Shown here in pieces: positions 7,060-63,381 of a DNA stretch of 64,000 nt; within the stretch, counting starts at the first letter, position 1; each line of letters opens with the position of its first letter. The notes beneath the pieces were generated by a model. It had not been told where the DNA came from. It ran no database searches and was given only the letters and a program-made list of their open reading frames with translations. This stretch comes from Desulfosoma sp. Its GTDB lineage: Bacteria; Desulfobacterota; Syntrophobacteria; Syntrophobacterales; DSM-9756. The position numbers and the translations under genes are program-made. The stretch lies in NCBI GenBank assembly GCA_037481835.1, contig JBBFKW010000011.1, forward strand, positions 95,163-159,162, read 5' to 3'.

Positions 7060-8880
7060 CTATCGGGACTCTGATCGCCTGTTGAGGAGCCAGTCGATGA
7101 CCCGGCCTGGGTCGGGTTGGGGAATCTCGGAACTTGGGGGCTGGGACGGTTTTGGGAGGCTTGAGGGCTGGTGGGCGGGTTCGGCGCCGCTCGCCGGCCC
7201 CGGTTCGGACGGCGTAGCGGTTAAAGGGGTTCCCTCGGAGGTCTTAACGGCGTGTGGAACGGATTCCGGGCGGGAGGGAACAGGGGGACTGGGCGCCGTC
7301 TCGGTGATCGGGGGGGATGGGGAGGCAGGGGCCTGAAAGGAGGCTTCCCCCTCGGGCTTTTCCGGCAGGGCCTGCGATGGAGCGGCTCTTGCCCCTGAGG
7401 TCGGCGAACGAGGCCGTTCGGGTTGCTCCCTGGATGGGGGGACTGCAGCGACGGATCTGGCGTTCTTGTTCGGGCTCACCGTTTTTTCGGCCGCTTTAGC
7501 CTTGAATTTGTGTTGCAACGCTTCGTGCTCGGCGATCCGCACCTTTTCCGGGTCCCAAGAACCAGGCCCAACCGTAAGGGACACCATACCGGAGGCGTCA
7601 AGAGAATCGGGCGATGCGGCCCGCTCCAGCAGAGCCGGGCTCAACACCGGGTGGCGGGAAAAAGTCGAGAGGCTGCCTCGGGGTTCGAACGGTTGTCCAA
7701 GAGCCGAAGATTCTTCACGGCTTTTCTTCAGGGCATCGCTCTTATCCGGCGCTTCCTGCCGTGTTTTCTTTTCGGACTGTGGATCCCCCGCCGAGGCGTC
7801 ATGGGGTTCGGCGGTGCCTTTTTCAGAAGGGGGCAGGGGCTTTACGATACGCTGGCCGTTGGAATCTACACCGGCCGCCGCCGGTGCCGTCTCTTGTCTC
7901 TTCTCCGGCACTCCCGAAGGTGCCGTAAAGGATTGGAGGCGCTTCACGCCTTCCAGAACCCATGTCCATGCCGTTTTCGGCCCTTCCGGGAGCCATACAA
8001 GCGCCGCCGCCAGCACGGCGGCGCACAGACCCGCCAAGGCGATTTTCCGATGTCTCCAAGGCTTGGCTTGAGTCCGGCCTTCCAGGTCGGCGATGACTTC
8101 CCGCACGATTTGCGGGGTCACGGGTTTTCGGCCGTAGCCGAAACCCGTAATAAAAGCGTTGTCGCAAATGATGTTGATCCTTCGGGGGATCCCCTGCGCT
8201 TCCTTGACGATGAGCTCCAGGGCTCCTTGCGTGAATACCTCCCGCGGGGCACTCTGAACCAGAGCCAGCCGGTGGCGGATGTAATCCACGCTTTCCTTGG
8301 GGGTGAGCGGCTTCAAGGTGGTTCGGATGGCGATGCGTTGCTTGAGCTGCCTGAGCTGGTGAAGATTGAGGGTGTTTTCCAGTTCCGGTTGGCCGATGAG
8401 AATGATCTGGATGAGCTTGTCCTTGGTACTCTCCAGATTGGAAAGCATGCGAAGGTTTTCCAGAGTCTCTACGGGCATGTTTTGGGCTTCGTCGATAATG
8501 AGCACCACGTTCCAACCGTCTTGATATTCCTTGATGAGGACCGTGTGGAGGTGGTGAACCATCTCATAAGGGTCCAGGTCGGGCGGTTCCAAACCGAGCT
8601 CACGGTAAATGACCCGAAGCAGCCCCGTGAAAGACACGTTGGCGTTGAAGACGAGGACCGTCTTGATATGGGTGCGGTCGTAGCGTTCCAGGTAGCTGCG
8701 CACAATGGTCGTCTTCCCCAGGCCGATTTCCCCCGTGATGGTGATGAACCCTTTGCGCTGCTGGACTCCGTAAATGATGGCCGCCAAGGCTTCCTTATGA
8801 CTCGGACTTAGATACAGAAAATCCGGATCCGGCGTGATGTGGAAGGGTTCCGCCCGGAACCCGTAAAAATCGAGATACAT
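7060..8880 (-). CDS. exeA: ExeA/GspA-family AAA ATPase with TM helix and Pro/Ser-rich tail
   Basis: MYLDFYGFRAEPFHITPDPDFLYLSPSHKEALA, GEIGLGKTT, IIDEAQN, LIGQPEL, QLKQRI, GIPRRINIICDNA. Confidence 0.88.
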   Translation of the reverse strand: MYLDFYGFRAEPFHITPDPDFLYLSPSHKEALAAIIYGVQQRKGFITITGEIGLGKTTIVRSYLERYDRTHIKTVLVFNANVSFTGLLRVIYRELGLEPPDLDPYEMVHHLHTVLIKEYQDGWNVVLIIDEAQNMPVETLENLRMLSNLESTKDKLIQIILIGQPELENTLNLHQLRQLKQRIAIRTTLKPLTPKESVDYIRHRLALVQSAPREVFTQGALELIVKEAQGIPRRINIICDNAFITGFGYGRKPVTPQIVREVIADLEGRTQAKPWRHRKIALAGLCAAVLAAALVWLPEGPKTAWTWVLEGVKRLQSFTAPSGVPEKRQETAPAAAGVDSNGQRIVKPLPPSEKGTAEPHDASAGDPQSEKKTRQEAPDKSDALKKSREESSALGQPFEPRGSLSTFSRHPVLSPALLERAASPDSLDASGMVSLTVGPGSWDPEKVRIAEHEALQHKFKAKAAEKTVSPNKNARSVAAVPPSREQPERPRSPTSGARAAPSQALPEKPEGEASFQAPASPSPPITETAPSPPVPSRPESVPHAVKTSEGTPLTATPSEPGPASGAEPAHQPSSLPKPSQPPSSEIPQPDPGRVIDWLLNRRSESR

Positions 8881-8961
8881 GGATGGCACGCTCGTATGGC
8901 TTCAAAGTAAACGTTCAGTGCATGCACGCTTAAGTTCGAAAATGCCGCCATGTCGGACGGA

Positions 8962-9888
8962 TCACGGGAGTCCCTGAAGATACGCCCTGTCTTCCGGCGA
9001 GAGCGTTCCTGTATCCGAGCATTCCCAGATAATATCCTGAACTTTGGCTTGCGCTTCAAAACTGAGTTTTTTCCCGAAAGTGAGTTCAACAATTTCATAG
9101 AGGCATGACAAGCCGGTGATGGCTCCCGGCGTATACTGATTTTCGCTCCCTGGGGCCGATAAGTGTGCCGCGAGGCAATAAGTCGGGACACAGAAAGTCG
9201 AAAGGCCGGGTTGCAGCTTATAAGGAGGGACGTGAAGTACCATCATCGGCTGGTAGCTGCTGTCTTGCGGGTAAAAAACCATACCCGGCGGAAGCATAAA
9301 TTCCATGGCTTCCGAAGATTCATTAATGAAGGTCACAGAAACTTGAAAAGTCGCGCCTATGGTGGGGGGAAGGCATCCATAAATGCATTGGGCGTTGTCG
9401 CCACAGTTTTGCATACATTGGATCATCTGTTGAATCGTTGCGGGATCGAGGCTGCTGAGATCATAACAACTCTCGTCTCCCCCCGCGACGCTTTGAATGC
9501 GTGCGGGAAGGGCCTGCAGCCGGGTGAGTTTCCAATAAGCACCGGAAGGATCTTGAGGGTTTGGGGTATAGGTCAGGTCCAAATCGAAAGGTTGGCCTCT
9601 GTACATGACCACGGCGTTAAGAATGTTCAGAGAGGCGTCCAGGACGCCGCCTTGAGGTCCCGCGACGGGTGTGGGTCCCGCCCAGGTGAGCTTCCAATAG
9701 GCCCCTGAAGGATCCTGGGGCAAAGTGACGAAATCAAAAAGGCCTCGATAGCGCTCGGATCCGACCGTCACGTAGGGAAGGGTCAGTTTCAGGGCGTCGT
9801 CGGCCGTGCCGCCGGCTCCGTAACCCGGCGCCGGTATTCCCGCCATCAGGACCATGGCGAGAATCACCCAAGAAGCTTTGCGAATCAT
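8962..9888 (-). CDS. Secreted protein with two 54-aa-spaced repeats and a thioester-domain-like C-terminus
   Basis: Signal peptide, GGAG RBS, PQDPSGAYWKLT twice, YQPMM..TYCL..VQDIIW. Confidence 0.8.
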   Translation of the reverse strand: MIRKASWVILAMVLMAGIPAPGYGAGGTADDALKLTLPYVTVGSERYRGLFDFVTLPQDPSGAYWKLTWAGPTPVAGPQGGVLDASLNILNAVVMYRGQPFDLDLTYTPNPQDPSGAYWKLTRLQALPARIQSVAGGDESCYDLSSLDPATIQQMIQCMQNCGDNAQCIYGCLPPTIGATFQVSVTFINESSEAMEFMLPPGMVFYPQDSSYQPMMVLHVPPYKLQPGLSTFCVPTYCLAAHLSAPGSENQYTPGAITGLSCLYEIVELTFGKKLSFEAQAKVQDIIWECSDTGTLSPEDRAYLQGLP

Positions 9889-11128: not shown

Positions 11129-12835
11129 TCAAAAAAGGTCGCTATCCGCCCTGGTGAAAAAGAAGCGGTGCATGTCCCCTGTATCCAAGGGCCTTTGGAA
11201 AGGAACGTAAACAAACCATAGGCCTTGGGGTTCCGGCTGGTGTTGAAACCCGATGGTGCGGAGCTCTCCGGTGAGCCACTCCGGGGCCTTTGAAAGCCAT
11301 AGGCTCAACGTGTGCACACCCAAGGCGCGTCCCAGCCATTGAAACCCTCGTGCCAACGCCTGGGGATGGGCGGGGTCCACAAAAAAGTCTCCCACCACGG
11401 CGCCGTTGGATTTTTTCTCGGCGACCATGTAGGCCGCCAGGCCCCCGAACCGGCGACGGACTTCGACCTTTACGTAGTTCCTGTCCGGATCAGCAAAGCG
11501 CCAGTTCAGGTAAGGGCTTTTCCGGACCACGAGAAAGCGCCCATAGGCGCGCTTTGCCCTTTCATAGAGGGCGTCGTGGTCCGGGCCGAACTTTTCAAAG
11601 CTGCGGCAGGAGTAACGCAGCATGGACGCCTTCGAGACCGCCAGGGCGTCGACGGCCGCGGTGTATTCGTCCACGGGGTAGACCGGCCGGTAGCCGAGGA
11701 AGAGTTTTCCCATCTTTTGAATGTTGCCCGTGTTGAAGCCATATACGAAGGGCACCTGATGGTCGCAGTAGCGCGCAAAGAAATAAAGAGCCGTTCGCAC
11801 CAAAACGGAGGTTTTCCCGAAGCCCACATGGCGGACCCCCGGGTGGGTCATGGTGTCCCCGACCTGAAGGACCGCGGCGGGTGTTGCATCGGATTCGATG
11901 TCCTCCACGGGAACGAAGTAGCCGGAAAAATTAGCGACGATACGATCCTCGCCGTCCCGGCATACGGCCACGGCGTCCCGGCCGAAAGGGCACTCTCGAT
12001 ATTTCCAGCGCCAATGTTCGATGGAGCGCGGCACTGAAAAAATCCGGCAAAAAAGGTCCACCAATGCCGGATCGTCTTCCTGGGGACAAGGCCGGATGCA
12101 ATAGGCGTCTTTTTCGGCTTCTATTATTTCGTATCCCCAGGCTCCGCTTTCATGCATCCGTTTTTGCTTGTGCCATCCGGCCGCCAGGCGGTCACGGTCT
12201 TCGCCGGGCGGCAGGTCGCTGAGCCGCTCGAGAACGGCGGCGCATGTGGGGGCCGTCCGGGGTCCGATGGCCTTGTTGTGGCGAATCTTGAAGCCGGCTT
12301 CAGCCAAGCTGATCGTGTAGGCGCGCTTGGGTTTGACGGCGGTTTCCCGTGCGCTGTCTTCTTCGTAGATCATTTCATCGCACAAAAGAATCCGGCCGTT
12401 GGACCGGAGCAACTCCCGGCAGGCGTTGAAGAGGTCCGAGAGCGAAGGAAAATACTGGGTAGATTCGAAAAACACGATCCAATCGTAGGAACCGGGTTTC
12501 CACCAGGAAGGATGCCTTCCTTCAAACGGTTCGCAAAGGAACGTCACTTTGGGGTGCGCACAGTGCGTTTCCGCGTATCGGATCATGGGGGGCTCGGGAG
12601 CCAGCGCCGTGACCCGATGGCCTCTGAGGGCCAGTTGCTGGGCGAAGTGCCCGAAACCGCACCCCACGTCCAGAACGGACAGGGATTCTCCCTGAATGCG
12701 CTCCAGCATGAGCGCGGTCAGATTGTTCTGGGCGTCTTCCAGGGACGCGGTGTCATCGTCCCAATAGCCGAAATGGAGGTCATGGCCCTTGACGATGCGA
12801 CGGTAGACGGAAAAAGGAAAGGACAGCTCTTCCAT
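11129..12835 (-). CDS. Class I SAM methyltransferase fused to GNAT acetyltransferase-like domains
   Basis: LHFGYW, VLDVGCGFG; C-half HWRWKY..P, GDTMTHP..R, VYGFN, YLNWRF. Confidence 0.8.
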   Translation of the reverse strand: MEELSFPFSVYRRIVKGHDLHFGYWDDDTASLEDAQNNLTALMLERIQGESLSVLDVGCGFGHFAQQLALRGHRVTALAPEPPMIRYAETHCAHPKVTFLCEPFEGRHPSWWKPGSYDWIVFFESTQYFPSLSDLFNACRELLRSNGRILLCDEMIYEEDSARETAVKPKRAYTISLAEAGFKIRHNKAIGPRTAPTCAAVLERLSDLPPGEDRDRLAAGWHKQKRMHESGAWGYEIIEAEKDAYCIRPCPQEDDPALVDLFCRIFSVPRSIEHWRWKYRECPFGRDAVAVCRDGEDRIVANFSGYFVPVEDIESDATPAAVLQVGDTMTHPGVRHVGFGKTSVLVRTALYFFARYCDHQVPFVYGFNTGNIQKMGKLFLGYRPVYPVDEYTAAVDALAVSKASMLRYSCRSFEKFGPDHDALYERAKRAYGRFLVVRKSPYLNWRFADPDRNYVKVEVRRRFGGLAAYMVAEKKSNGAVVGDFFVDPAHPQALARGFQWLGRALGVHTLSLWLSKAPEWLTGELRTIGFQHQPEPQGLWFVYVPFQRPLDTGDMHRFFFTRADSDLF

Positions 12836-12867
12836 GGAAAGACGGCGGCTCCTTCAATTCCTTGCCT

Positions 12868-14052
12868 TTAGGGCTGTGTGGATTCGACGACAAATGAGAA
12901 TCGGATCCTCCTGGAACCTATGGAGGCGTTCACAGAGCCGATTCTTCCGAAATATCGGCCGGGGCTCAATCGCTCGAAACAGTCCTCGGGAAATTCCGCA
13001 ACCCTTCCGGTTCCAAAAGCGGCCGCCGCCGGGATGAAATTGGCGTTGGGGCTCCACTCGAAAAGCCACGGCCGCGTGATCTCAGGCGGAACGAAAATCC
13101 GGAAGGGTTTACAATACCTAGGCATCGTTTCCCCCGGATCAGCCTCAGCCATGTCCCGATGCCGAACCTGCGGCACGTGCCGAACGAACAATTCATACCA
13201 TGGAAAGTGTTTCCTCAAAAAGATCTTGTGGGAATCGGCCATGAGCCGCCTCTTGATGTGTACGCCTTCCAGACCGCAGCGGTCGAATTCGTGAACGACC
13301 GCCGCTTTCGGGCACACAACCAAGCGCCATCCCCTTTCCCGCATGCGGACAAACAGGTCCGTATCTTCAAAGTAGAGGAAAAACCGGGGGTCAAAGAGCC
13401 CTCCGACATCGCGGACGGCTTCGGCACGCAGAAGCACCGAACCGCCCGAGAGGTTTTTCACGGGAAAGGGGGTCATCGTTGCCCATGCGCGCACTGCCTG
13501 TCGGCGCCACAACTCGCCTGCCGCCCGCAGGAACGGCGCGGCACGAAAACCCAACCTGTCGGCCACAGAGAGCATCAAAATCCAGTTTGGGGGAACAGAA
13601 GGGGGCAAAAGGAATCGGCACAGGGGATCCCAGTAAATCTTGGGCCCGACGGCCCCAATGCGCCCGTCGGCGTTGAGAACGTCGAGCATGTTCTCAAGAC
13701 AACGGCCTAGCAGGTAGGCGTCGGGATTGAGGAGCAGCAGAGCGTCCCCCGGGCATTTTTTCCAAGCCATGGTGCAGGCTTGTCCGAAACCCAGATTGTG
13801 CGGGGCCACGATCAATCGGACCGGTTTGGGAAGATCGCGTTCCAAGACGGCCGCTTCTTGCGGACTTTCACTGTTGTCCACGACCACGACGGTTACCGAT
13901 GCGGGGCAAGGGGAAGCCAAAATCGAAGCCACCGCTCGAAGGGTCAGCGTCGCACTGAAATAGTTGACCACGATCGCGACGACTCGGCGGATGGGAGCAG
14001 CCGATCTTGGGGACGGAAGCCGCCCTGGGCTGAGAGGATACCAAAGAGGCAT
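12868..14052 (-). CDS. GT2 glycosyltransferase
   Basis: AIVVNY, VVDNS, NLGFG, LLNPD, FDPRFFLYFEDTDL. Confidence 0.9.
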   Translation of the reverse strand: MPLWYPLSPGRLPSPRSAAPIRRVVAIVVNYFSATLTLRAVASILASPCPASVTVVVVDNSESPQEAAVLERDLPKPVRLIVAPHNLGFGQACTMAWKKCPGDALLLLNPDAYLLGRCLENMLDVLNADGRIGAVGPKIYWDPLCRFLLPPSVPPNWILMLSVADRLGFRAAPFLRAAGELWRRQAVRAWATMTPFPVKNLSGGSVLLRAEAVRDVGGLFDPRFFLYFEDTDLFVRMRERGWRLVVCPKAAVVHEFDRCGLEGVHIKRRLMADSHKIFLRKHFPWYELFVRHVPQVRHRDMAEADPGETMPRYCKPFRIFVPPEITRPWLFEWSPNANFIPAAAAFGTGRVAEFPEDCFERLSPGRYFGRIGSVNASIGSRRIRFSFVVESTQP

Positions 14053-14261: not shown

Positions 14262-15890
14262 ATGATCCAGACCCTGAGAACCTTGTGGGAAAGAGTGCGG
14301 CCGGTTTCCGAGGGCCCTCTTACGCTTACGGCGGCCCAAGGACCGAACGGGGCCAAGTTGGAAAAGATGCCGGTCTTTCCCGTGCTGGAGGAAACGGATT
14401 TCCCCGATGCGCCTCCACGCTACAATCCCCTGCCCGTCTCGTACCTCAAGCGGTTCAAGGTCTTGCCCGTGGAAGAGACCGATCACGGCGTCACGGTGGT
14501 CATGGTGGATCCTTTGGACCTGGCGACCCAGGAAGTGGTTCGAAAAGCGTACGGCAAGCCGCTGAAAATCTACCGGGCGTCCGCCGAAGCCATCGCCCAG
14601 TTCATATACCAGTGGTACGAAGCGGACAGCGCGCTCCAAGACACCGAAGGAGAACTGGAAGAGAGCGCGGATTTGGATGCCCACCTGTGGGACAACCCCG
14701 AGCATCTTCGGGATATGGCCTCCGAGGCGCCCATCGTCCGTCTGGTCAATCACTTGATTTCCCGGGCCGTGGACGTGGGCGCGTCGGACATCCACATCGA
14801 GCCGCTGAAAAAGCTGGTCAAGGTGCGCTACCGCATCGACGGCGTCCTCCATGATCAGGAGGACATCCCCAAGAAATTCCAGGCGGCCATCGCCTCTCGG
14901 ATCAAGCTCATGGCCCGCATGAACATCGCCGAAATGCGCCTCCCCCAGGACGGTCGCATCAAGTTCAAAATGGCCAAGAAGGAAATCGACATTCGCGTCT
15001 CCAGTCTTCCCACGGTTTTCGGCGAGAGTCTGGTGTTGCGCCTCTTGCAAAAGGAAGACATCCTCCTGGATCTCGACATCCTCGGCTTTCCCAAGGATCT
15101 CCTCGGCCGATTCAAGCAGATCATTTCCCTCCCTTACGGCATCCTTCTCGTCACGGGGCCTACCGGGTCGGGGAAGACGACGACCCTCTACGCCGCCATC
15201 AATGAAATCAACAGCCCGGACCGCAAGATCGTCACCGTGGAAGACCCCGTAGAATACCAGCTCGACGGGGTCAACCAGGTGCAGGTGCAGCCGAAGATCG
15301 GGCTGACTTTTGCTCATTGTCTTCGCTCCTTCCTTCGGCAAGACCCGGACGTGATGCTCGTCGGGGAAATCCGAGATCTGGAAACGGCCGAAATCGCCAT
15401 CCAGGCGGCCCTGACCGGCCACATGGTTTTTTCGACCCTGCACACCAACGATGCCGCCGGAGCCATCACCCGGCTGGAAGACATGGGTGTGGAACCCTTC
15501 ATGATCACCTCCGCCGTCGTGGCCGTGCTCGCCCAAAGGCTGGTCCGCAAAGTGTGTTCGGCGTGTATGGACGAAATCGTCCTGAGCGAGGAAGAACGGC
15601 GCATCCTGGCCCAGGAGTTTTCCGTCTCTCCAGAGGCCGTGCCGGCCTCTTACCGGAAAGGGCGAGGGTGCGACCAATGCGGCGGGACGGGATACCGCGG
15701 TCGTATCGGCCTTTTCGAATTCCTGCCGGTGGACGAACCGATCCAGCGCGAAATCCTCAAAGGCTCCGACCGCAACGCCATCGTCGCCAAGGCGGTGGAA
15801 TTGGGCATGCGGACCCTGCGCCGTGACGGTCTGGAAAAGGTGGTGGACGGGATCACCACCTTTGAAGAAGTCATTCGGGTGACACGGTAA
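14262..15890 (+). CDS. gspE: Type II secretion ATPase GspE
   Basis: ASDIHIEP, RLPQDGRI, TGPTGSGKTTTLY, EDPVEY, LRQDPD, TGHMVFSTLHTN, CxxC..CxxC, GYRGRIG. Confidence 0.95.
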   Translation: MIQTLRTLWERVRPVSEGPLTLTAAQGPNGAKLEKMPVFPVLEETDFPDAPPRYNPLPVSYLKRFKVLPVEETDHGVTVVMVDPLDLATQEVVRKAYGKPLKIYRASAEAIAQFIYQWYEADSALQDTEGELEESADLDAHLWDNPEHLRDMASEAPIVRLVNHLISRAVDVGASDIHIEPLKKLVKVRYRIDGVLHDQEDIPKKFQAAIASRIKLMARMNIAEMRLPQDGRIKFKMAKKEIDIRVSSLPTVFGESLVLRLLQKEDILLDLDILGFPKDLLGRFKQIISLPYGILLVTGPTGSGKTTTLYAAINEINSPDRKIVTVEDPVEYQLDGVNQVQVQPKIGLTFAHCLRSFLRQDPDVMLVGEIRDLETAEIAIQAALTGHMVFSTLHTNDAAGAITRLEDMGVEPFMITSAVVAVLAQRLVRKVCSACMDEIVLSEEERRILAQEFSVSPEAVPASYRKGRGCDQCGGTGYRGRIGLFEFLPVDEPIQREILKGSDRNAIVAKAVELGMRTLRRDGLEKVVDGITTFEEVIRVTR

Positions 15891-17098: not shown

Positions 17099-17540
17099 GC
17101 GCTTCGGGTTTACCTTGGTCGAGCTCCTCGTGGTGATGGCCATCATGGCCGTCTCGCTCGCCCTGATTTTTGCCACCGTGGGAAGCGGGCTGGGCAGGAA
17201 GCAGGACCGCCGCTTTGCCGTGGAGCTGGGCGGACTCTTGAGAAAAGCGAGGAACCAGGCCATGGCGGGCGGCGTTCCCGTGGCCGTCGTATTTTCCGAA
17301 GAAAGCCGCCGGTGCTGGATCGCCGAACCCGGGGAAGGGTTCGTGGATATTCCCGCCGAGTTGGAAATCCAGGCGCTGGGACTGCTCCGCGCGGAGAACG
17401 TCCTTTACCTCGTCTTCTACCCGGACGGAGCTTCCAGCGGTGCGGAACTGGAGGTCGTCCGAAGGGGGGCGGTTTTGAGCCGCATTCGGGTGGATCCTTT
17501 GACGGGGCTGGCTCTGGCTGTCGTCGGAGAGGGCGGCTAG
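17082..17540 (+). CDS. gspH: Minor pseudopilin GspH/FimT-like
   Basis: G|FTLVELLVV, ARNQA, FYPDGASSG, VDPLTG. Confidence 0.85.
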   Translation: MKSPFERFGFTLVELLVVMAIMAVSLALIFATVGSGLGRKQDRRFAVELGGLLRKARNQAMAGGVPVAVVFSEESRRCWIAEPGEGFVDIPAELEIQALGLLRAENVLYLVFYPDGASSGAELEVVRRGAVLSRIRVDPLTGLALAVVGEGG

Positions 17541-17580
17541 GAGCTCGTCCGATCATGATGCGTCGTCGCTCCGGAGCCGA

Positions 17581-17907
17581 ATGCACGTTGGGGTTCGCTT
17601 CGCTCACCCCAACCTACGAATCTGTTCAAGGATATCGGCCGACGAGATGGAGGCTTCTATGAAAGTCGCGCTCAGAGTGTGAAAAGCCCTGACTTTCATC
17701 GTTCGTTGTCTCGCCGGGGCAAGATGCACGTTGGGGTTCGCTTCGCTCACCCCAACCTACGAATCTGTTCAAGGATGTCGGCCGACGAGATGGAGGCTTA
17801 TGTGAAAATCGCGCTCAAAGTGTGAAAAGCCCGGACTTTCATCGTTCGTTGTCTCGCCGGGGCACGATGTTGAGACGTAGGTTGGGGTGAGCGAAGCGAA
17901 CCCCAAC
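17581..17907. repeat. BIME/REPIN-like mosaic: two 143-bp tandem units, each with an inverted REP, then a forward REP
   Basis: REPs at 17587-17617, 17730-17760, 17877-17907; units 17581-17723 and 17724-17866 nearly identical. Confidence 0.88.
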
Positions 17908-17924
17908 ACCAACCACTTCATGGG

Positions 17925-21968: not shown

Positions 21969-21989
21969 GGCGCTGGAGGAGAGGCGACG

Positions 21990-43760: not shown

Positions 43761-43786
43761 CCGCCATTCCCATCAACTACTACAAA

Positions 43787-55041: not shown

Positions 55042-55976
55042 CTCGCAGCTCCTTTGGGATAATCTAAGAGACGGCGCACGACGTTTTCGTTGACGACGAC
55101 GTCGTAAGAAGGGATGGTCGTGGGGCACTGCCCGGATCTCAGGTAGAGGTCCAAGAGGAAGGCGGTGGCCGCACCGATTTTTTCGTAGTCCAGGACGAAC
55201 GCCATGGCGGCGCCCACTTCCAGGAAATACCGATTGTAGCCGATGGAGGGAACGTTTTGGAACAGGGCCGTTTCCACCACGTATTCGACCAGGGCTTTGG
55301 AATCGATGGCCGGATCCGGGATGATCCACAGGGCGTCCATGTGGGGCAGGCTTTCGGCGAGGCGTTCGGGAACCTTCTTGGGGCCGTCCACGGCGATGGG
55401 CTGCACGGTGATGCCGAGAGTGCGGGCGTGGGCCTCGGCTTTTTGGAGAAAGAGGCGGTTTTCCGCGGAGGAGTAAAGAACGCCGAGGCGGGTTCTCCCC
55501 GGGAGGGTTCGGATGACGGCCTCCAGCTGCTCGGCTGCGGGAATGGTCAAGGCGATGCCGCACGGCGCCGTTTCGGCTTCGGGGAGAAGCTTCATGGGAT
55601 CCAAAACGACCGAAAAGACCCGAGGCCTTCCGGTGGCGCGCGAGACGGCGTCCACGACCGAGAGGGCTTCGGGGCCGATGGCCACGTAGGCGTCCACGGA
55701 CGCTTGGATAAGTTCCGCCTGGCCGGGGCGAAAGTCTCCTTGAGTGTCTTGGGGCAGAGTGATAGGCTGTCGGGCGTGGATGCGGTGTTCGGCCAGGGCG
55801 GCCGTAAGGCCTTTGAGGGCTTCCAGGTAGGGTCGAAGGGGTGCCGAGACGACGATGGCGACGCGCCGGGGGGGCTCGGTCCCGTGCGGGTCCGGGACGG
55901 CCGGAGATCCCGAGCCGACATGCGGCAAAAAGGCGCAGGCCATGAGGAATATGGAAAGAAAAATCGTCTTTTTCAT
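55038..55976 (-). CDS. Periplasmic ABC_sub_bind-type substrate-binding protein
   Basis: Signal; AIGPEA, VFSVVLDP, LGVLYS, DALWIIPD, DYEKIG, VVVN; ATG 55976. Confidence 0.8.
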   Translation of the reverse strand: MKKTIFLSIFLMACAFLPHVGSGSPAVPDPHGTEPPRRVAIVVSAPLRPYLEALKGLTAALAEHRIHARQPITLPQDTQGDFRPGQAELIQASVDAYVAIGPEALSVVDAVSRATGRPRVFSVVLDPMKLLPEAETAPCGIALTIPAAEQLEAVIRTLPGRTRLGVLYSSAENRLFLQKAEAHARTLGITVQPIAVDGPKKVPERLAESLPHMDALWIIPDPAIDSKALVEYVVETALFQNVPSIGYNRYFLEVGAAMAFVLDYEKIGAATAFLLDLYLRSGQCPTTIPSYDVVVNENVVRRLLDYPKGAAR

Positions 55977-56192
55977 GCCGTCCCAAAGCCTGAGTATGGG
56001 GCAGAACTCCCGGGGAATGTGCCCGAAAACGGCCGGAAGCACAAGAGATGAGGCAAAAAGTGCGCCGATCGGGGCCGGATGGTCCTCGCGGGCGCCACTT
56101 TTGGATGGTCGGGAAGGCGTGAGGCGGGCATTCCGCCCAAAGCCTTTCTCGAGCCGTGCAGGGACAAGAAACTACACAGGAGGATGGCTGCA

Positions 56193-56945
56193 ATGAAGAA
56201 GAAACGGATGCACGGGATTCTTGTCTTAGGGTTGAGCCTTGCCGTGTTCGTGCTGTGCGGCGGGACCGGATTGTCGGCGAGTCCGGGGACGGAGGGCGAC
56301 AGGGCCTTGCCGCCCATGGTGACCAAGCATCTCTTGGTGCCGGAATCCAACACGTCTCAAGGTGGTGCCGGTCCCGTCAACGCCTCGCGGGTCACCTTCA
56401 CGGGGATCCTGAACACGCCCAAGGGGACGAAGGCGCTCTTGGAAACGGGGGCAGCCTCCAAAGAAGGGGCGTCTCCGGCCGGCTGGTACGCCGTGGGCGA
56501 CACCGTGGGGCCCTACGTGCTGAAAGAGATCCAGGCCAATACGGTGGTTCTGGAAGGGAACGGCGACACGCTGCGGCTGCCGCTCTACGGCCCGGACAAG
56601 GACAGGCCGCAACCTGTGGAAGTGGCCGCCGGCCCGCTGGATAAGGGACAAATTCCTCAAAGGGGTGGCGAGCAGGCCCAGGGACAGGGACAGGAACAAC
56701 AAGGCCAACAGCCCGGTCCTTTCGGCCCGGCGCCCAAGGGGGCCGTCCAGGGCAAGGGAACCACCCCACCGGGACAGACGTCGCCTCCTGCTCAAAGCGG
56801 CGGGGCGAATCCGTTGCAACAGGCCATCGAAAAAGCTCGGCAGGGCCAGGGCCAGGGCTCGACGCAAGGACCTTTCCCGCCGCCCCAAGGCTCGGGTTCG
56901 GGGAGCAACCCCTTCATGGAAATTTTGAAAAAGAAGAACCCGTAA
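56193..56945 (+). CDS. gspC: GspC-like T2SS protein (TM + HR-like domain + Q/G/P-rich tail)
   Basis: AGGAGG RBS; VTFTGIL..KALL..YAVGDTVGPYVLKEIQANTVVLEGNG..LPL. Confidence 0.6.
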   Translation: MKKKRMHGILVLGLSLAVFVLCGGTGLSASPGTEGDRALPPMVTKHLLVPESNTSQGGAGPVNASRVTFTGILNTPKGTKALLETGAASKEGASPAGWYAVGDTVGPYVLKEIQANTVVLEGNGDTLRLPLYGPDKDRPQPVEVAAGPLDKGQIPQRGGEQAQGQGQEQQGQQPGPFGPAPKGAVQGKGTTPPGQTSPPAQSGGANPLQQAIEKARQGQGQGSTQGPFPPPQGSGSGSNPFMEILKKKNP

Positions 56946-57059: not shown

Positions 57060-57914
57060 CTAGCAACGCCGGTCCCATAGTAAAGACACACTAAAATGGG
57101 CGGCAAGGCCGAGCGCCACGAAGGGGGCAAGGATACCGGAACATTGCGGGTGGTGCTTGCAAAATAGACGGAATGCGCTGCGATGGAAGTGGGTGTGGGC
57201 GCTCAGGCGTTGGTGGCGGCGACTCACCCCCACGTGATGGATTACGCTGGACGCCGGATGGTAGACGGTCTGCCATCCGGCGTTTTTCATCCGAGCGCAT
57301 AAGTCCGCGTCTTCCCAAAAAAGAAAGAAGCCTTCGTCGAAACCTGAGACGGATTGGAAGGCGGCGCGCCGAATGATCATGCAGGCTCCGGAGACCCAAT
57401 CCACCACTCGGGGCCCAAGGTCGTCCCTTTCCAAATTGACAATGTTTTTCCGGGAAAATCGGTTCCTCGGGAAACGCCTGGTCAGGGGCGATGTCCTGCC
57501 GAACAGGACGGTGGACAGAGAAGGGAAGGATCGGGCCGAGCCTTGAACGGATCCGTCCCCGTTGAGGATCTTGGGGCCAAGAATCCCTACGGTAGGATGT
57601 TCTTCCATGAATGACAATAGCTCCGACCAGGGCCCTTCCAAAAAAAGGCTGTCGGGATTGACCACAATAAATAGGGGAGCGTGGGTCTTTCGACACAGGT
57701 TGTTTACGGCTTTGCCAAAGCCCAGGTTGCTCGGGTTTCGATACACACTGACTTGGGGCGGCATTCCCAGCAGCGTCCAATCCACGCTTGACCCGTTGTC
57801 CGCGATATGAAAGGAGGGGGAGTAACGGCTGAGCGAGGTGGCAAGGATGGAGCGAACACAATTGACGGTTTCGTTTTCACTATGGTAGTTGACGATGAAA
57901 ACGTCTAAAGCCAT
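57060..57914 (-). CDS. GT2 glycosyltransferase (WbbL/rhamnosyltransferase-like)
   Basis: IVNY, ADNGS, NLGFG, VNPD, VDWVSGACM, GFDEGFFLFWEDADLC. Confidence 0.9.
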   Translation of the reverse strand: MALDVFIVNYHSENETVNCVRSILATSLSRYSPSFHIADNGSSVDWTLLGMPPQVSVYRNPSNLGFGKAVNNLCRKTHAPLFIVVNPDSLFLEGPWSELLSFMEEHPTVGILGPKILNGDGSVQGSARSFPSLSTVLFGRTSPLTRRFPRNRFSRKNIVNLERDDLGPRVVDWVSGACMIIRRAAFQSVSGFDEGFFLFWEDADLCARMKNAGWQTVYHPASSVIHHVGVSRRHQRLSAHTHFHRSAFRLFCKHHPQCSGILAPFVALGLAAHFSVSLLWDRRC

Positions 57915-58102
57915 GGTCCCGTTCCTCTCGGTAGCCCTGTGGGAAAGATGAACCGCGCGCCTCATGGAAAGCGGGGCTCGGCCGAGCGGGTCTCCATAGC
58001 ACTTTTAGCACGAACCATGCAAGGGGAGAGCCGAGAAAAAGAGCTTGGGATTGCCAGCTGGTAACGAAACGGGCAAGCGGTCTAGAAAAGGATACGAAAA
58101 GG

Positions 58103-59080
58103 TTGAGTCGAAAGGTCCTGATTACAGGGGTTGCGGGCTTCATTGGATCTCATCTGGCGGATCGGCTGCTTTCAGACGGCGTGGATGTCGTCGGCATTGA
58201 CAACTTGTCCACGGGGAGCTTGCAAAACATCTCTCACCTTGCCGCCCATGGTGCATTTCGCCTGGTTGTGGACACCATCCTCAACGAGCGCCTGATGGAC
58301 GAGCTGGTGGGCCGGTGCGACGAGGTCTACCACCTGGCGGCGGCGGTGGGCGTAAAGCTCATCATGAACCGCCCGGTGGAGACGCTGGAAACCAACGTGC
58401 GGGGAACCGAGGTGGTCCTTCGGTGCGCCAACCGCCACAAGAAAAAGGTGCTCATCACGTCCACGTCCGAAGTGTACGGCAAGGCCATGGACGACAACGG
58501 CGGCGCCCCCCTTCGGGAAGACGGCGACAGCCTCATCGGACCCACGTCCCGGCGCCGCTGGGCCTACGCCTGTTCCAAGGCCTTGGACGAGTTTCTCGCC
58601 CTGGCCTATCACGAAGAAAAGAAGCTTCCCGTCATCGTCGTGCGCCTGTTCAACACGGTGGGACCACGCCAGACAGGCCAATACGGGATGGTTGTCCCCA
58701 ACTTCGTCCAGAAGGCGCTGCTCAACAAGCCCATCATTGTCTACGGCGACGGGTCCCAGTCCCGGTCCTTCACCCACGTCTCCGACGTCGTGGAAGCCCT
58801 GGTGCGCCTCATGGCCGAACCGCGGGCCGTGGGTCAGGTCGTCAACGTGGGGAACCCCCAGGAAATCACCATCCGCGAACTGGCCGAGCTGGTCAGGGAA
58901 ATGACCGGAAGCCGATCGGAAATCGAATACATCCCCTATGAACGGGCCTACGGACCCGGTTTTGAAGACATGCGGCGCCGCTGCCCGGATATTACGAAAC
59001 TCAAGGAACTCACCGGCTATACGCCCCGGGTGGACTTGAGGGGCATCATTGAGAGCGTCATCGCGCACTACCAGACTTGA
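58103..59080 (+). CDS. NAD-dependent nucleotide-sugar epimerase/dehydratase (UDP-GlcA decarboxylase-like SDR)
   Basis: ITGVAGFIGSHL, HLAAAVGV, TSTSEVYG, YACSK, RLFNTVGPRQ. Confidence 0.9.
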   Translation: MSRKVLITGVAGFIGSHLADRLLSDGVDVVGIDNLSTGSLQNISHLAAHGAFRLVVDTILNERLMDELVGRCDEVYHLAAAVGVKLIMNRPVETLETNVRGTEVVLRCANRHKKKVLITSTSEVYGKAMDDNGGAPLREDGDSLIGPTSRRRWAYACSKALDEFLALAYHEEKKLPVIVVRLFNTVGPRQTGQYGMVVPNFVQKALLNKPIIVYGDGSQSRSFTHVSDVVEALVRLMAEPRAVGQVVNVGNPQEITIRELAELVREMTGSRSEIEYIPYERAYGPGFEDMRRRCPDITKLKELTGYTPRVDLRGIIESVIAHYQT

Positions 59081-59095
59081 GCGAGGATAGGGGCT

Positions 59096-61042
59096 ATGGA
59101 GATCGCTCTGTATTGGATTCGGGCCCTGGGGTTGTTTGCCGGCGCCTTGGCCCTCGCCTGGCGGCTGACGCCGATCGTGGGGCGCTGGGCCGCCCGACAC
59201 GGCAAGGTGGCCGTTCCCCGGGAAGACCGCTGGCACAAAAAAGCCACACCGCTTTTGGGCGGTATGGCCATTGTCGGGGCGTTCTATGCCGTGACAACCC
59301 TAGCCATGTTTGTCGGGCTCATGGGTGCCGGCTCTCGCTCCCTCGTGCCTGTGCTGCCGCTCCTGCTCTGCGGCGTGGGCATGTTCCTCCTCGGGCTCTG
59401 GGACGATTTCCGAAACCTCTCCCCCCAGACCAAACTCGTGGGACAGATCGTCCTGGCGGCTGTCCTGGTCTTCTACGGCTACAAGATCGATTGGTTCGTG
59501 TCCAAGACGGCCAACACCTTTTTGAGCATTCTATGGATCGTGGGGATCACCAACGCCTTTAACCTCTTGGACAACATGGACGGGTTGAGCGCCGGTGTGG
59601 CGGCGGTGGCCGCTTTTTTCCTGCTGGCTTTTGAAACCGTGACGGGAGGGGGACTCCCCGCGGATCCCCACATGCTCCTCGTGCCCATCTTTCTCGGGGC
59701 CGTCCTTGGCTTTCTGCGCCACAACGCCTACCCCGCCTCCATCTTCATGGGCGATTGCGGCAGCCTGTTCCTCGGGTTCCTGCTCGCCGGCATCAGCACC
59801 CAGAACGAGCTCAGCCGCCACGGGCACCTGGTGCCCATCGTTTTGGCGCCCCTGTTCGTTTTCTGCCTTCCCGTGGCGGACATGGCCCTGGTTTCCGTCA
59901 TGCGCACGGTTTTTTGCCGCTCCGTCGCCTGCGGCGGCCGGGATCACACCTCCCACCGGCTCGTGGCCATAGGCCTGGATGAAAAAAGGGCCGTGCGGGT
60001 TCTTTACGGCTTTTCGGCTCTGGGAGGGGCCGTGGCGCTCCTGAGCGCCCTGGACATGGGCCTCTTCTATGCCGCCGGGTCGCTTTTCGTGCTCTTGACG
60101 GTGGTTTTTCTCGTGCGGCTCGCCCAGGTGCGGGTATACCCTCCCGGGGAAAAGAGCCTCTTGGAAAAGAAACCGGCCCTCACAGTCCTCTGGGTGCAGT
60201 TCACCTACAAGAAACGCGTCTTCGAAGTCCTTCTGGATGTCTTTCTCATTTCCTTTTGTTATTGGCTGGCCTATTACCTGCGCTACGAAAGGTGGGCCGA
60301 TCCCGGGGCGTTTCCTCTCTTTTTGAACAGCCTTCCCGTGGTGCTCGTCTGCTGCCTGGCCGCCTACGTGGGGTGTGGGATTTACAGAGGGGTGTGGCGC
60401 TATACGACGCTTTCGGATGTGAGCGCTCATGCCATGGCGGTGAGCGCGGGGGTGTGCCTGAGCGTGGCGGTCCTGGTTTTCGCTTACGATTTCAGAGGGT
60501 ATTCGCGGACCGTCTTTGCCATCTTCTGGATGCTGACCCTGATTTCCCTGGCGGGGTCCCGGCTTTCCTTCCGCCTTCTTTCGGAATTTCTAAACAAGCT
60601 CGCCCAAAAAACCGGCCGGCGGACCCTCATCTACGGGGCCAACCGAAGCGGTGGGTACGTTCTCCAGGAACTCCTGGAAAACAAGGCACTGGGCTTGGTT
60701 CCTGTCGGGTTCATCGACGAGGATGAGCGCACGGTGCGGCGGCGTCTTTTCGGCTACAAGGTCCTGGGGAGCCTCCGGAACCTGCGCAAGCTCATCCGGC
60801 GCTACGGGGTCCAGGAAATCATCGTGGCCTCCCGCGATGTCTCCCAAGAAATCGCCGAAACCTTGAATGCGGTATGCCGGGAGATGGGTGTCGTCCTGAG
60901 GCGGGCCGAGCTGCAGCTCTTTCCGTGCGGGGAAGCCGCTCTTCGTGAGAAAGAGGCAACCCTGGTTCCGGGGACAACCCCGCCTGCCGGGACCACGTCG
61001 CCTCCAGCCCCAAAAGCCGCCGGCATGGGAAACACGGTCTAG
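59096..61042 (+). CDS. MraY/WecA-family phosphoglycosyl transferase fused to a CapD/WbaP-type membrane + CoA-binding-like domain
   Basis: PLLGG, GLWDD, NAFNLLDNMDGL, FMGDCGS, DHTSHRL; then YRGVWRY, RTLIYGA, VGFIDED. Confidence 0.85.
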   Translation: MEIALYWIRALGLFAGALALAWRLTPIVGRWAARHGKVAVPREDRWHKKATPLLGGMAIVGAFYAVTTLAMFVGLMGAGSRSLVPVLPLLLCGVGMFLLGLWDDFRNLSPQTKLVGQIVLAAVLVFYGYKIDWFVSKTANTFLSILWIVGITNAFNLLDNMDGLSAGVAAVAAFFLLAFETVTGGGLPADPHMLLVPIFLGAVLGFLRHNAYPASIFMGDCGSLFLGFLLAGISTQNELSRHGHLVPIVLAPLFVFCLPVADMALVSVMRTVFCRSVACGGRDHTSHRLVAIGLDEKRAVRVLYGFSALGGAVALLSALDMGLFYAAGSLFVLLTVVFLVRLAQVRVYPPGEKSLLEKKPALTVLWVQFTYKKRVFEVLLDVFLISFCYWLAYYLRYERWADPGAFPLFLNSLPVVLVCCLAAYVGCGIYRGVWRYTTLSDVSAHAMAVSAGVCLSVAVLVFAYDFRGYSRTVFAIFWMLTLISLAGSRLSFRLLSEFLNKLAQKTGRRTLIYGANRSGGYVLQELLENKALGLVPVGFIDEDERTVRRRLFGYKVLGSLRNLRKLIRRYGVQEIIVASRDVSQEIAETLNAVCREMGVVLRRAELQLFPCGEAALREKEATLVPGTTPPAGTTSPPAPKAAGMGNTV

Positions 61043-61086
61043 ATTCTTCCAAAAGTCGGCCGCGAAGGCGAACCTCCCCCAAACAC

Positions 61087-61491
61087 TTATTCCTCGTCAA
61101 AAGGCGCCGTGCCGGGAGGGTCACTCTCAACGCTCGGGTTTGGGACCTCTTGCCGTTCCTCCAGCCTCGCTTCTAGGATGGCCAGGCGCTGGGCGAGGCG
61201 TCGCATATTCTGTTCGCGGCGGCATCGATCTAAGTCCTGCGTCAAGCTCTTGATGAAGAGCAAAGCTAGGGCGAAGATTATAGCCAGAATCGGCGGGTAG
61301 TGCACGCCGAGTGCCTTGCCGACTTTGTCCACAATCTTTGGAAAAACTCCTAGCACGAAGGCACCACTGGCCACGGCGATCCACCAGAGGGCATAGCGCA
61401 CTTGCATCCGGTCACGCCGCACGAGGTAAAGGATGGCCACGCAGAGAAGCGTGCCGATGACGGCCGAAGTCCAGTGGGGGGAGAGCTTCAC
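61087..61491 (-). CDS. DUF2304-family membrane protein (GacJ-like)
   Basis: LVRR..YALWW, FPKIVD..LGVHYPP, RRLAQRLAIL; GTGA overlap with the GT2 gene. Confidence 0.8.
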   Translation of the reverse strand: MKLSPHWTSAVIGTLLCVAILYLVRRDRMQVRYALWWIAVASGAFVLGVFPKIVDKVGKALGVHYPPILAIIFALALLFIKSLTQDLDRCRREQNMRRLAQRLAILEARLEERQEVPNPSVESDPPGTAPFDEE

Positions 61492-62225
61492 GGGGCCTCT
61501 CCCGAGTTCAAGGTCCGAGATGCCCTGTTCTTTATAAAGGCAAAAAAAGGGTACGGTCTTTGGCTCACGGAGACGATCCCCGAATAAACGAGGTACCAAA
61601 AGACGGCCCGCCACGTGTGGAACACGCGGCTGTGGCCGTTTCGGCGAGGGCCCATGGTTACGGGCACCTCCGAAAAGCGCAGTCCCGCCCGTTTGAGGAA
61701 AAGGAGGACGCCCACATCCTGGTAATCCAGAAGCGAGGCTTCGCGGCTCGCGAGGATTTTGAGAGCCGGCCGATTGTAGGCGCGAAATCCCGATGTGAGA
61801 TCGGCCACATCGAGCCCCGTGATCCGGCGAAATATCAGCCAGGTGAGGCGGCGGGCCGCGCTGCCTCGATCCACGCAGGATCCGATGACCACATCACTGT
61901 GGCCTTGGAAAAGGGGTTCCAGGATGCGGGGGATGTCTTCCGGCCGATGCTGACCGTCCCCGTCCATGGTGACGAGGATCCGGCAGCCGTGCGCCAGCGA
62001 GTAACGAATGCCGGCCTGGGTCGCACACCACGCTCCGAGGTGTATGGGGAGGGGGAGGACGACGGCGCCCGCGTCCCGAGCCTTTCGGGCCGTGTCGTCG
62101 GTGCTGAAATCGTCCACGACGACCACGGCGCCGTTGAATGCGCGGCGAACGCCCCCCACCACATCCCCGATGGACGCCCCCTCATTGTGCGCTGGAATGA
62201 CGACCCACACCTTTTCCGTACCCAT
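61488..62225 (-). CDS. DPM1/GacI-like GT2 (polyprenyl-phosphate sugar synthase)
   Basis: VIPAHNE, VVDDFSTD, TMDGDGQH, DLTSGFRAYN, EVPV.M..R..G.S. Confidence 0.88.
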   Translation of the reverse strand: MGTEKVWVVIPAHNEGASIGDVVGGVRRAFNGAVVVVDDFSTDDTARKARDAGAVVLPLPIHLGAWCATQAGIRYSLAHGCRILVTMDGDGQHRPEDIPRILEPLFQGHSDVVIGSCVDRGSAARRLTWLIFRRITGLDVADLTSGFRAYNRPALKILASREASLLDYQDVGVLLFLKRAGLRFSEVPVTMGPRRNGHSRVFHTWRAVFWYLVYSGIVSVSQRPYPFFAFIKNRASRTLNSGEAP

Positions 62226-63381
62226 CGCCCCCCGCAACCTTCCCGTAAAGCCCCAGCACATCACGGGCCACGGAATCGATGTGAAAATGGGCCCGAAACC
62301 GCTCCCCACCTTGCTTTCCCATGGCTTCGCGAGCCTCAGGGTCCCGCGCCAAAGCCCTCAAGGCGCCGGCCAAATCCTCCGCATCACCGGGGCGGACGAG
62401 CACTCCCGTTTCCCCGTGGCGGACCACCCACCCCATGCCGGATCCGGGAACATCGGACGCTACGACGGGTTTTTCATAGCGCATGGCCTCGAGGAGCACA
62501 AGGCCGAAGGCCTCCGTCCGTTCCTTGGACGGAAGGCACAGAACGTCGCAGGTAGCCGCCAAAGCGTGGAGTCTCTCGTCGGGAACCCAGCCGGCGAAAA
62601 AGACCCGGGTTTGCAGCCCGCATCGCCGGGAAAGTTCCCGGAGCTTTTTTCCCTCAGGCCCCGTGCCGACGATCACGGCCCGAGCCTCCGGAACGCGGGC
62701 CACGGCCCGGATCAAAACATCATGGCCCTTATAATAGGTCAGGCGCCCCACGCTGAGAACCCTTAAGCCATCAGGGGCCCACATTCTTTCTGCATCGGCC
62801 CGGGCGGAAACCGCCGGTTCCGGAACCCTCAGGGGATCGATCCCCAGGGGGACGATGCGACACTTGGCCCGCCAGGGTTTCAAGGGCTCGCTGGTTTCGA
62901 GGTACGGAGGCGACGTGGCAATGACGGCCCGGGCTTGGCGAAGGAGGCGCGTTTCCAGGGGCCGGTAGATCCGATAAGCCGCCGTCAGTCGCCGATCGAT
63001 GGCGCTCGGGACCACGTCGGCATGCCAGTGCACAACCCATGGAATCTTTCGGGCCTCCGGCACGGCCAGCGCCCAGAAGGCGCTCGTATTCGGGACGTGC
63101 AGATGGAGAAGATCCGGGCGAAAACGGTGGATCATCTTTTTAAAAGCGGAAAGAAAAGCTGGGCTTATAGGGGCGTAGAGCACGGCGCCGCAGCTGGGAA
63201 CCCGAAGTACCCAAGGGTCTTTATCAATATTCCCGACTGTGACCCAATCGGACCGTTGGTTGTGTACCAGAACAGAGATCGGCACCCCGCATCGTGCCAA
63301 AGCATGCACCAAATCTCGCAGAAAATTCTCCATGCCGCCCGCGTAGGGAGGGTAATATTTACCGACATGCATGGCCCTCAT
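62182..63381 (-). CDS. GT4 glycosyltransferase
   Basis: GKYYPP..GGME, HWHAD, VGRLTYYKG, ERTEAFGLVLLEAM. Confidence 0.92.
   Translation of the reverse strand: MRAMHVGKYYPPYAGGMENFLRDLVHALARCGVPISVLVHNQRSDWVTVGNIDKDPWVLRVPSCGAVLYAPISPAFLSAFKKMIHRFRPDLLHLHVPNTSAFWALAVPEARKIPWVVHWHADVVPSAIDRRLTAAYRIYRPLETRLLRQARAVIATSPPYLETSEPLKPWRAKCRIVPLGIDPLRVPEPAVSARADAERMWAPDGLRVLSVGRLTYYKGHDVLIRAVARVPEARAVIVGTGPEGKKLRELSRRCGLQTRVFFAGWVPDERLHALAATCDVLCLPSKERTEAFGLVLLEAMRYEKPVVASDVPGSGMGWVVRHGETGVLVRPGDAEDLAGALRALARDPEAREAMGKQGGERFRAHFHIDSVARDVLGLYGKVAGGDGYGKGVGRHSSAQ

Follow-up and report, generated by a model that had tools for sequence, protein, structure and literature searches.

A 64,000-nucleotide stretch of the 3.63-Mb genome of Desulfosoma sp. 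(G000:C11:95163-159162, hereafter the window) carries a locus that, taken as a whole, is probably best explained as building a single-subunit, NpdA-type surface layer (S-layer). Judged by its sequence, the protein encoded at 43787-45169 (here the SLP) appears to be in a sister subfamily of NpdA, a proven S-layer protein whose gene abolishes the S-layer when deleted (PMC10765051). NpdA has been reported from beta- and gammaproteobacteria only (PMC3110197, PMC10765051), and no description of NpdA-like proteins or of such a locus in Desulfobacterota was found in our literature search, with most subscription journals and older species descriptions outside its scope. What appears to be new is a Desulfobacterota branch of the NpdA-type S-layer locus linked to a type II secretion system (T2SS), together with conserved partners that have gone unremarked and a sigma54 layer specific to the lineage. 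It is difficult to find S-layer genes from sequence; here one is named for a group of sulfate reducers, for which the searches made returned no named S-layer protein, and it is tied to a tested family.

We infer the following route. The SLP would cross the inner membrane by Sec, would be aided in folding by a SurA/PrsA-like chaperone, and would exit through the T2SS, completed by an orphan gspG gene on contig C12. It would then assemble on the outer membrane, held by O-polysaccharide that Wzm/Wzt would export and acyl and methyl enzymes would tailor, with a small NTF2-fold lipoprotein as a possible core assembly or hand-over factor. In this lineage, a sigma54 promoter would drive the genes for a CAP-domain protein, the chaperone, the lipoprotein, and the SLP. 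The simplest regulator would be the adjacent substrate-binding protein (SBP), histidine kinase (HK), and sigma54-dependent response regulator (bEBP), sensing a substance imported by a TonB-dependent receptor (TBDR). A subtilase, a BACON-domain protein, and a 147-aa protein would be accessory exported surface proteins. Coordinates are collected in Table 1.

The secreted protein and its relationship to NpdA

The SLP has a 23-aa Sec signal peptide (read by eye) and a mature part of 437 aa with a pI of 4.2, and it matched no Pfam or NCBIfam family. Of 8000 candidates, 190 were homologs with E<=0.001, the closest named ones labelled Desulfosoma sp., and a 119-sequence profile led to 3012 representatives at 50% clustering. 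Tracing the family into Comamonadaceae reached P0463, a cluster representative named P. citrulli ABM34689.1/A1TUQ1, which the window-family profile matched at 99.4 bits over both domains. Conversely, the SLP was the sole match of a 47-sequence NpdA profile among the 26,739 open reading frames (ORFs) of the genome (E 1.2e-21), and hhalign aligned the SLP and NpdA profiles over 356 columns (probability 99.7%, E 3.8e-27). P0463 was taken to be NpdA because species, signal length, and mass agree; its mass minus 25 residues is 52,393.6 Da, and the printed mass of mature NpdA is 52,394 Da (PMC10765051). The accession used in that paper, WP_011797163, was not among the four names displayed for the cluster. 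NpdA of Delftia acidovorans Cs1-4 and Paracidovorax citrulli AAC00-1 is a homologous full-length subunit which, like the SLP, has a Sec signal peptide and gsp genes in its locus, whereas the SLP is about 100 aa shorter and falls in a separate clade. In a quick, midpoint-rooted tree of 40 rows, this clade held 20 rows, mainly Desulfobacterota, with an SH-aLRT of 97. The full-length homology and the reciprocal sole match in the genome support the original prediction to the extent that 43787-45169 encodes a protein of an S-layer family.

The AlphaFold model of the SLP has two beta-sandwich domains (pLDDT 90.7, pTM 0.93). The C-domain resembles TM1070 (Z 9.3, root-mean-square deviation 3.0, 106 residues), the sole row at Z>=8, and the rows for the N-domain lie near Z 5 (4.9), which is noise level. 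TM1070 is a tetrameric ASRAH domain and a predicted sugar binder (PMC2739507). Both the SLP C-domain and the 147-aa protein share only fold likeness with the ASRAH/ASRT-DUF5719 superfamily, with no Pfam match above cut-off. Foldseek returned nothing for the SLP at E<=0.001, the best hit of its profile in a PDB sequence search had an E of 2.1, an Atlas search gave only unnamed clusters, and hhalign found no match between the N- and C-domains.

The SLP is patchily distributed, being found in 2 of 41 relatives, 6 of 122 class genomes, and 8 of 401 phylum genomes. Of 125 GTDB loci, the best 80 belonged to Desulfobacterota-type genomes and to six genera that PMC10765051 lists as npdA carriers (Ottowia, Nitrotoga, Usitatibacter, Dokdonella, Rudaea, and Lysobacter). 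Distant homologs of 600-675 aa occur in Syntrophobacterales without an upstream lipoprotein (L011-L014; G023, G072-G074), and tandem or orphan NpdA paralogs without the lipoprotein occur in Comamonadaceae (L119, L134, L157-L167), where they might be S-layer variation cassettes. Many metagenome contigs of 1.3-2.0 kb (L182-L253) hold little beyond the SLP gene, with 27-260 nt before it and 11-110 nt after it; they might have been assembled from transcripts, or the assembly might break where the gene varies. Four short-contig loci (L016, L039, L043, L070) carry the bin labels Balneolaceae, Heimdallarchaeota, Rikenella, and Opitutae and are maybe mis-binned.

Conserved partners of the putative S-layer gene

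When 48 window proteins were used as tblastn queries on the sister genome G002, all recurred in the same order except the TAXI-family SBP, the family 2 glycosyltransferase (GT2) at 57060-57965, and the full-length GT4. G001, a genome of the same genus, keeps gspE-D, the genes for the BACON protein and a 424-aa lipoprotein, the gspC-like gene, the epimerase gene, and wecA. Of the subtilase, TBDR, and SBP genes it has no more than fragments, and it is without the genes for the SLP, both NTF2-fold lipoproteins, the chaperone, the CAP protein, the transmembrane (TM)+TPR protein, and HK/bEBP, as well as wzm/wzt and the tailoring genes. This co-loss outlines a module. In the synteny check that had been proposed, G002 gave a collinear locus, and G001 keeps the T2SS without the SLP module.

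Within the T2SS, GspE and GspD exceed the NCBIfam cut-offs. The single copy of gspG lies outside the window among unrelated genes (G000:C12:110953-111267, within the interval 110734-111273), and gaps in gsp clusters were likewise noted for NpdA (PMC10765051). Orthologs of the GspC-like protein are encoded just before gspD in the beta/gamma loci. Among the 80 GTDB loci, many of them short or truncated, tblastn found gspD within 10 kb in 45, wzm in 42, and wzt in 36. Iterated profiles detected the chaperone family in 70 and the lipoprotein family in 81 of 110 loci. No parvulin domain was detected in the window chaperone, a short form, but long orthologs carry a Rotamase domain. The CAP domain was matched by Pfam in the orthologs only, not in the window protein. 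Conservation of these neighbours across two phyla supports the T2SS, the chaperone, and Wzm/Wzt as partners of the SLP, as had been proposed. The claim of a dedicated T2SS fared less well: the linkage to the S-layer gene stands, but dedication is weakened by the T2SS being the only one in the genome (tblastn found no second T2SS-type gspD/gspF set), by its being intact in G001 after SLP loss, and by gspG lying elsewhere. Since G001 and G006 have a T2SS without the SLP, either the T2SS has other uses or the loss of the SLP is recent. Because the layer of Delftia acidovorans is readily seen, the lipoprotein, the chaperone, and Wzm/Wzt could be tested as partners in that species.

The lipoprotein gene lies directly upstream of the SLP gene for 69 of the 72 ORFs that could be assessed in the GTDB set (3 had none there, 4 more were too short to assess, and ORFs of <300 aa were excluded) and in 41 of 42 assessable cases among 80 metagenome loci (30 loci were too short and 8 had no complete ORF). 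The other fetched loci gave 31 yes, 22 no, and 16 short, the negative rows being mostly distant proteins of Syntrophobacterales and secondary paralogs. Both copies present in the genome fall inside the window, one ahead of each of two secreted proteins. The family has an invariant-like Cys and Trp pattern and matched no Pfam family above cut-off; its model is NTF2-like, and Foldseek returned only NTF2-like domains. A predicted complex with the SLP scored 0.01 against a mark of 0.32, which is evidence neither way.

The lipoprotein might instead be a T2SS pilotin or adaptor, or an accessory of glycan export, with its place before the SLP gene merely operon order. It lies between gspD and the SLP gene in beta/gamma loci, and orphan SLP paralogs are without it. 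Its profile matched 53 of the 401 genomes of the phylum, among them each of the 8 in which an SLP is detectable, and at 20 higher-scoring places, 19 of them in SLP-negative genomes, it was inside a gsp operon in 3, beside GT4/wzt in 5, next to an acidic secreted protein in 6, and not classifiable in 6. However, the lipoprotein stays by the SLP gene where gspD is 21 kb off on the other strand, as in the window, or not nearby. A copy of its own also belongs to the second cassette (window, L023, L038), and G001 and G006 have gspD but no match to the lipoprotein. We consider an accessory of this kind possible but somewhat unlikely and prefer an assembly or hand-over factor. The lipoprotein may mark S-layers that have gone undetected, or it may serve the T2SS or glycan export. 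The acidic secreted proteins behind it (290-400 aa; L259, L260, L261, L266, L275, L276) are candidate divergent S-layer proteins, and two of the six places have a CAP gene upstream and wzm/wzt downstream. Only one of the six, that of G677, matches the SLP profile (79-82%); the others, at 28% or less, were rejected as SLP homologs.

Much of this architecture has precedents. The locus of a Delftia-named protein has the same lipoprotein, chaperone, and wzm/wzt as the window. Compared to the npdA locus, the window has its SLP gene 19 kb from gspD and on the other strand, has gspG elsewhere, and adds the CAP, TM+TPR, and TBDR-SBP-HK-bEBP genes and a sigma54-type site. The Aeromonas loci for VapA, AhsA, and AvsA resemble the window in combining a T2SS operon, an S-layer gene, wzm-wzt, and glycosyltransferase genes. 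The genes of A. hydrophila AH-1 run spsE..D, vapA, wzm, wzt, and glycosyltransferases, and wzt mutants are without O-antigen (PMC4413209); the avsA gene lies between pulD and rfbD (bioRxiv 2025.04.15.648961). The O-antigen of Aeromonas is made by the ABC-2 route, and the window Wzm/Wzt is likewise of the ABC-2 type. Unlike the window, the AH-1 gene table shows no lipoprotein or chaperone between spsD and vapA (PMC4413209), and AvsA is modelled with three domains, the SLP with two. In Pseudoalteromonas tunicata, the gene for the S-layer protein Slr4 adjoins a T2SS cluster (PMC7821379; T2SS linkage and locus tags are given there and in PMC4572682). The Slr4 family PF19526 matched neither secreted window protein at E 0.01; among the structural neighbours of the 147-aa protein in the Atlas is a cluster in which Slr4 makes up 16% of the members. 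The combination had been put forward as one with no known description in this lineage, but the architecture is not undescribed: Aeromonas has a published counterpart, as do npdA and slr4 for the T2SS part. An NTF2-fold lipoprotein gene directly upstream of an S-layer gene, a SurA/PrsA-like chaperone, and a sigma54-type promoter ahead of the CAP-chaperone-lipoprotein-SLP run were not found in the papers searched. The main text of PMC10765051 has no instance of lipoprotein, peptidyl, glycosyl, Desulfo, or deltaproteo, although its Fig. S5 might show such genes, and PMC12175726 and bioRxiv 2025.04.02.646754 gave zero matches for the terms searched.

A different kind of system also has similar genes. 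PEP-CTERM/exosortase systems have an ExeA-like ATPase, a TPR protein, an HK, and a sigma54 regulator beside polysaccharide genes. The NCBIfam matches of the window to such systems were below curated cut-offs or generic, and no exosortase was matched among the 50 window proteins scanned.

A sigma54-type promoter and its possible regulator

The original prediction gave the locus its own sigma54 signalling, and this found support: a sigma54-type site precedes the CAP-chaperone-lipoprotein-SLP run, and HK/bEBP/TBDR genes recur beside it in several Desulfobacterota loci. Sites were scored from -250 to +150 of the CAP ORF start with a consensus score of our own and a threshold of 19.5 picked after inspection; 3 of 23 loci were dropped for short flanks, and the loci span several orders, with kin among them that are not independent. 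Scored in this way, 14 of 20 loci had a sigma54-type site at the CAP start, compared to 0/20 on the antisense strand and 4.9% of 4000 random windows. The site lies before the predicted start in 13 of the 14, and 9 have an ATG 14-22 nt behind the GC. Chaperone-first loci without a CAP gene had a site in 5 of 31. Scanning close to the SLP gene gave a weaker signal, with 10/31 Desulfobacterota-type loci, several of them near kin, against 2/31 and 3/31 controls, and 3/49 beta/gamma loci. A sigma54-like site at 45763-45779, 610 nt before the SLP gene and common to four close relatives, was discounted because it lies within the signal-peptide codons of the lipoprotein.

The HK-bEBP-TBDR genes, with the SBP gene where the locus reaches, lie ahead of the CAP-chaperone-lipoprotein-SLP run in L020, L031, L032, L037, L185, L213, L230, G002, and the window; in L028 they are downstream on the opposite strand. 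A sigma54-type site is present in 6 of these 9 cases with the module upstream. The adjacent bEBP would be the simplest candidate for driving the CAP promoter. How T2SS-exported S-layers are folded, anchored, and regulated would become testable through a sigma54 switch and a conserved lipoprotein. A perfect inverted repeat at 48095-48135, at the end of the TM+TPR gene and about 50 nt upstream of the sigma54-type site, has a single copy in the genome and could be a terminator or an activator-binding site.

Second cassette, glycan genes, and competing readings

About 56 kb of envelope genes had been described in the window, and NCBIfam (n=50 proteins) and Pfam (n=27 and n=10) scans, with ORFs ranked by codon use, confirmed this content with corrections (Table 1). 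The two lipoprotein plus secreted-protein cassettes were also found, with a hairpin behind each. It had further been proposed that the layer is a glycoprotein lattice of two subunit types, the second being the 147-aa protein, with the Wzm/Wzt glycan or a TMTC-added sugar attached to the subunits. Each secreted protein does have its own lipoprotein copy and terminator, a likeness to ASRT/DUF5719 folds is common to the SLP C-domain and the 147-aa protein (TM 0.72-0.78 for the 147-aa Atlas model against DUF5719/ASRT clusters), and the subtilase-lipoprotein-147-aa order recurs in G002 and L023. However, no more than 6 of 33 candidates are close homologs of the 147-aa protein, which, beyond the window, was found only in G002 and L023, always behind the subtilase and lipoprotein genes (2/110 loci; 0/80 metagenome loci). 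Its codon use is atypical (4th percentile), and against the SLP sequence hhalign gave a probability of <=0.5%, whereas the C-terminal domain of the subtilase was matched at 95.9% (E 6e-9). Since it is rare and matches the subtilase domain instead of the SLP, the claim of a second subunit is unsupported, and we read the 147-aa protein as a probable accessory surface or docking domain. The BACON protein, a 308-aa protein, and the CAP C-terminus gave no hhalign match to the SLP domains.

As to the sugar, NpdA is called glycosylated (PMC3958437), the SLP carries three N-x-S/T sequons, and the genome has one STT3 match. Yet neither an O-antigen ligase gene nor one for STT3 is in the window; lpxC, the STT3 match, and five Wzy_C/WaaL matches all lie outside it, the ligase and STT3 genes on other contigs. 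The TM+TPR gene, for which a TMTC-like transferase had been proposed, occurs in just 14 of 80 loci (tblastn); its TM+TPR architecture agrees with that name, but its membrane domain has no family match (Pfam gave TPR families only). NpdA assembly was reported to depend on lipopolysaccharide and its layer to be tetragonal (PMC3110197). By analogy, O-polysaccharide anchoring the S-layer appears a better reading of the Wzm/Wzt glycan than glycosylation of the SLP, and the two-subunit glycoprotein lattice as a whole is improbable.

The single-subunit NpdA-type reading has points against it as well. Identity to NpdA is low (18% between the lead sequences of the profiles), pairwise BLAST spans only 141 N-terminal residues, the SLP lies outside the Pseudomonadota NpdA clade in a clade without a tested member, and its codon adaptation index, at the 52nd percentile in a genome with weak codon bias, gives no signal of high expression. 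In four phylum genomes the only gsp gene within ~20 kb of the SLP gene is the GspC-like one, the T2SS of G001 is intact although the SLP is gone, that of G006 occurs with no match to the SLP or lipoprotein, and the lipoprotein is also found inside gsp operons and glycan clusters. For regulation, the consensus score was our own, thresholds were post hoc, and kin were not independent; L185 and L213 have the regulator but no site, the site of L230 falls within signal-peptide codons, and the genome has 72 further tblastn matches to the regulator. A diverged, non-lattice NpdA homolog, such as a sugar-binding adhesin or matrix protein in an envelope island of loose modules around a general-purpose T2SS, would fit the separate clade, the predicted sugar binding of ASRAH domains (PMC2739507), the sparse distribution (8/401 phylum genomes, 2/41 relatives), and the T2SS retained without the SLP, but is very improbable given the full-length homology, the lipoprotein, chaperone, T2SS, and wzm/wzt neighbours shared with the locus of the Delftia-named protein, the single SLP copy with its strong terminator, and the co-loss in G001.

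Beyond the single-subunit NpdA-type layer, a broader and rather unlikely idea is that an NTF2-fold lipoprotein and an ASRT-fold secreted protein form a general unit of T2SS-built S-layers, the lipoprotein nucleating, anchoring, or handing over its partner and marking a larger hidden set of such proteins. A receptor-binding protein-kinase relay acting on a sigma54 promoter would then make the Desulfobacterota coat switchable, and a shared docking domain would let it display a protease.

Table 1. Features of the window, in order of position
Feature	Coordinates	Strand	Basis or remark
ExeA-like AAA ATPase, low-complexity C-terminus	7060..8889	-	NCBIfam/Pfam; below curated cut-off
Secreted Cys-rich protein, no family, accessory	8962..9888	-	Pfam, synteny, profiles
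TAXI SBP	9919-11058		probably passenger
Methyltransferase + GT2	11129..14052	-	NCBIfam/Pfam
T2SS operon gspE F H I J K L M D (no gspG)	14262..24287	+	NCBIfam/Pfam, synteny
Exported BACON-domain protein	24404..26314	+	Pfam; kept in G001
424-aa-ORF lipoprotein, no family	26286..27560	+	Pfam, synteny; kept in G001
S8 subtilase, IPT + C-terminal DUF5719/ASRT-like domain	27809..29797	+	NCBIfam/Pfam, hhalign
Second NTF2-fold lipoprotein copy	29794..30267	+	profile search
147-aa secreted single DUF5719/ASRT-fold domain	30362..30805	+	profiles, Atlas, hhalign
Terminator-like hairpin	30835..30900	+	z -2.55
Glycan synthesis/tailoring: methyltransferases, GT2s, deacetylase-GT2 fusion, AlgX-like, MBOAT, 595-aa membrane protein	30977..41906	-	
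wzt + wzm (ABC-2 polysaccharide exporter)	41543..43688	-	directly behind SLP terminator
Intrinsic-terminator-like hairpin behind SLP gene	43715..43775	-	-37.1 kcal/mol, z -6.1
SLP, putative S-layer protein, Desulfobacterota branch of NpdA family	43787..45169	-	profile homology, model, tree
NTF2-fold lipoprotein (start probably 45794, listed ORF from 45971)	45231..45794	-	profiles, model, position
SurA/PrsA-like chaperone, short form	45809..46438	-	profiles, Pfam
Exported CAP-domain protein (likely start 47957)	46509..47957	-	first gene behind sigma54-type site
Sigma54-type -24/-12 site	48029..48045	-	88 nt upstream of CAP start; a conserved feature of CAP starts
Multi-TM + TPR protein, TMTC-like architecture	48149..50185	-	architecture, no family match
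TBDR (ORF 50189-52792, true start approximate)	50189..52208	-	NCBIfam/Pfam
Sigma54-dependent response regulator (bEBP)	52249..53640	-	NCBIfam
HAMP HK (ORF 53644-56193, true start approximate)	53644..55100	-	NCBIfam/Pfam
Periplasmic SBP (ABC_sub_bind)	55038..56042	-	Pfam
GspC-like protein, name inferred from position	56079..56945	+	profiles, Pfam
WecA/MraY-type initiator, epimerase/dehydratase, DUF2304, GT2s, GT4	57060..63417	both	NCBIfam/Pfam

Three methyltransferases are among the window genes, and the 595-aa membrane protein (35838-37625) has no family. Together with the GT2 + DUF2304 genes (61087-62309), it may resemble the streptococcal GacI/GacJ/GacL side-chain system. The BACON protein is kept in G001 and is therefore not tied to the SLP. 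It and the 424-aa lipoprotein, which has glycine-zipper-like segments and may be CsgG/PelC-like, are 75-89% conserved in G001 and G002 and were retained after SLP loss. A search of 11 genomes with the 424-aa lipoprotein found its own copy only; homologs also occur in L200 and L212, and with the BACON protein it is possibly part of a second T2SS-linked surface system. The protein at 8962-9888 has an internal repeat and atypical codon use and was otherwise found only in G002. REP-like palindromic repeats lie between gspH and gspI (17540-17925); they were rejected as part of the system, the palindrome occurring genome-wide (189 matches of a 26-mer, both strands counted). Finally, a cobalamin riboswitch (3279-3466, minus strand, 124.6 bits) lies upstream of precorrin methylmutase and BtuC/FecCD permease genes.

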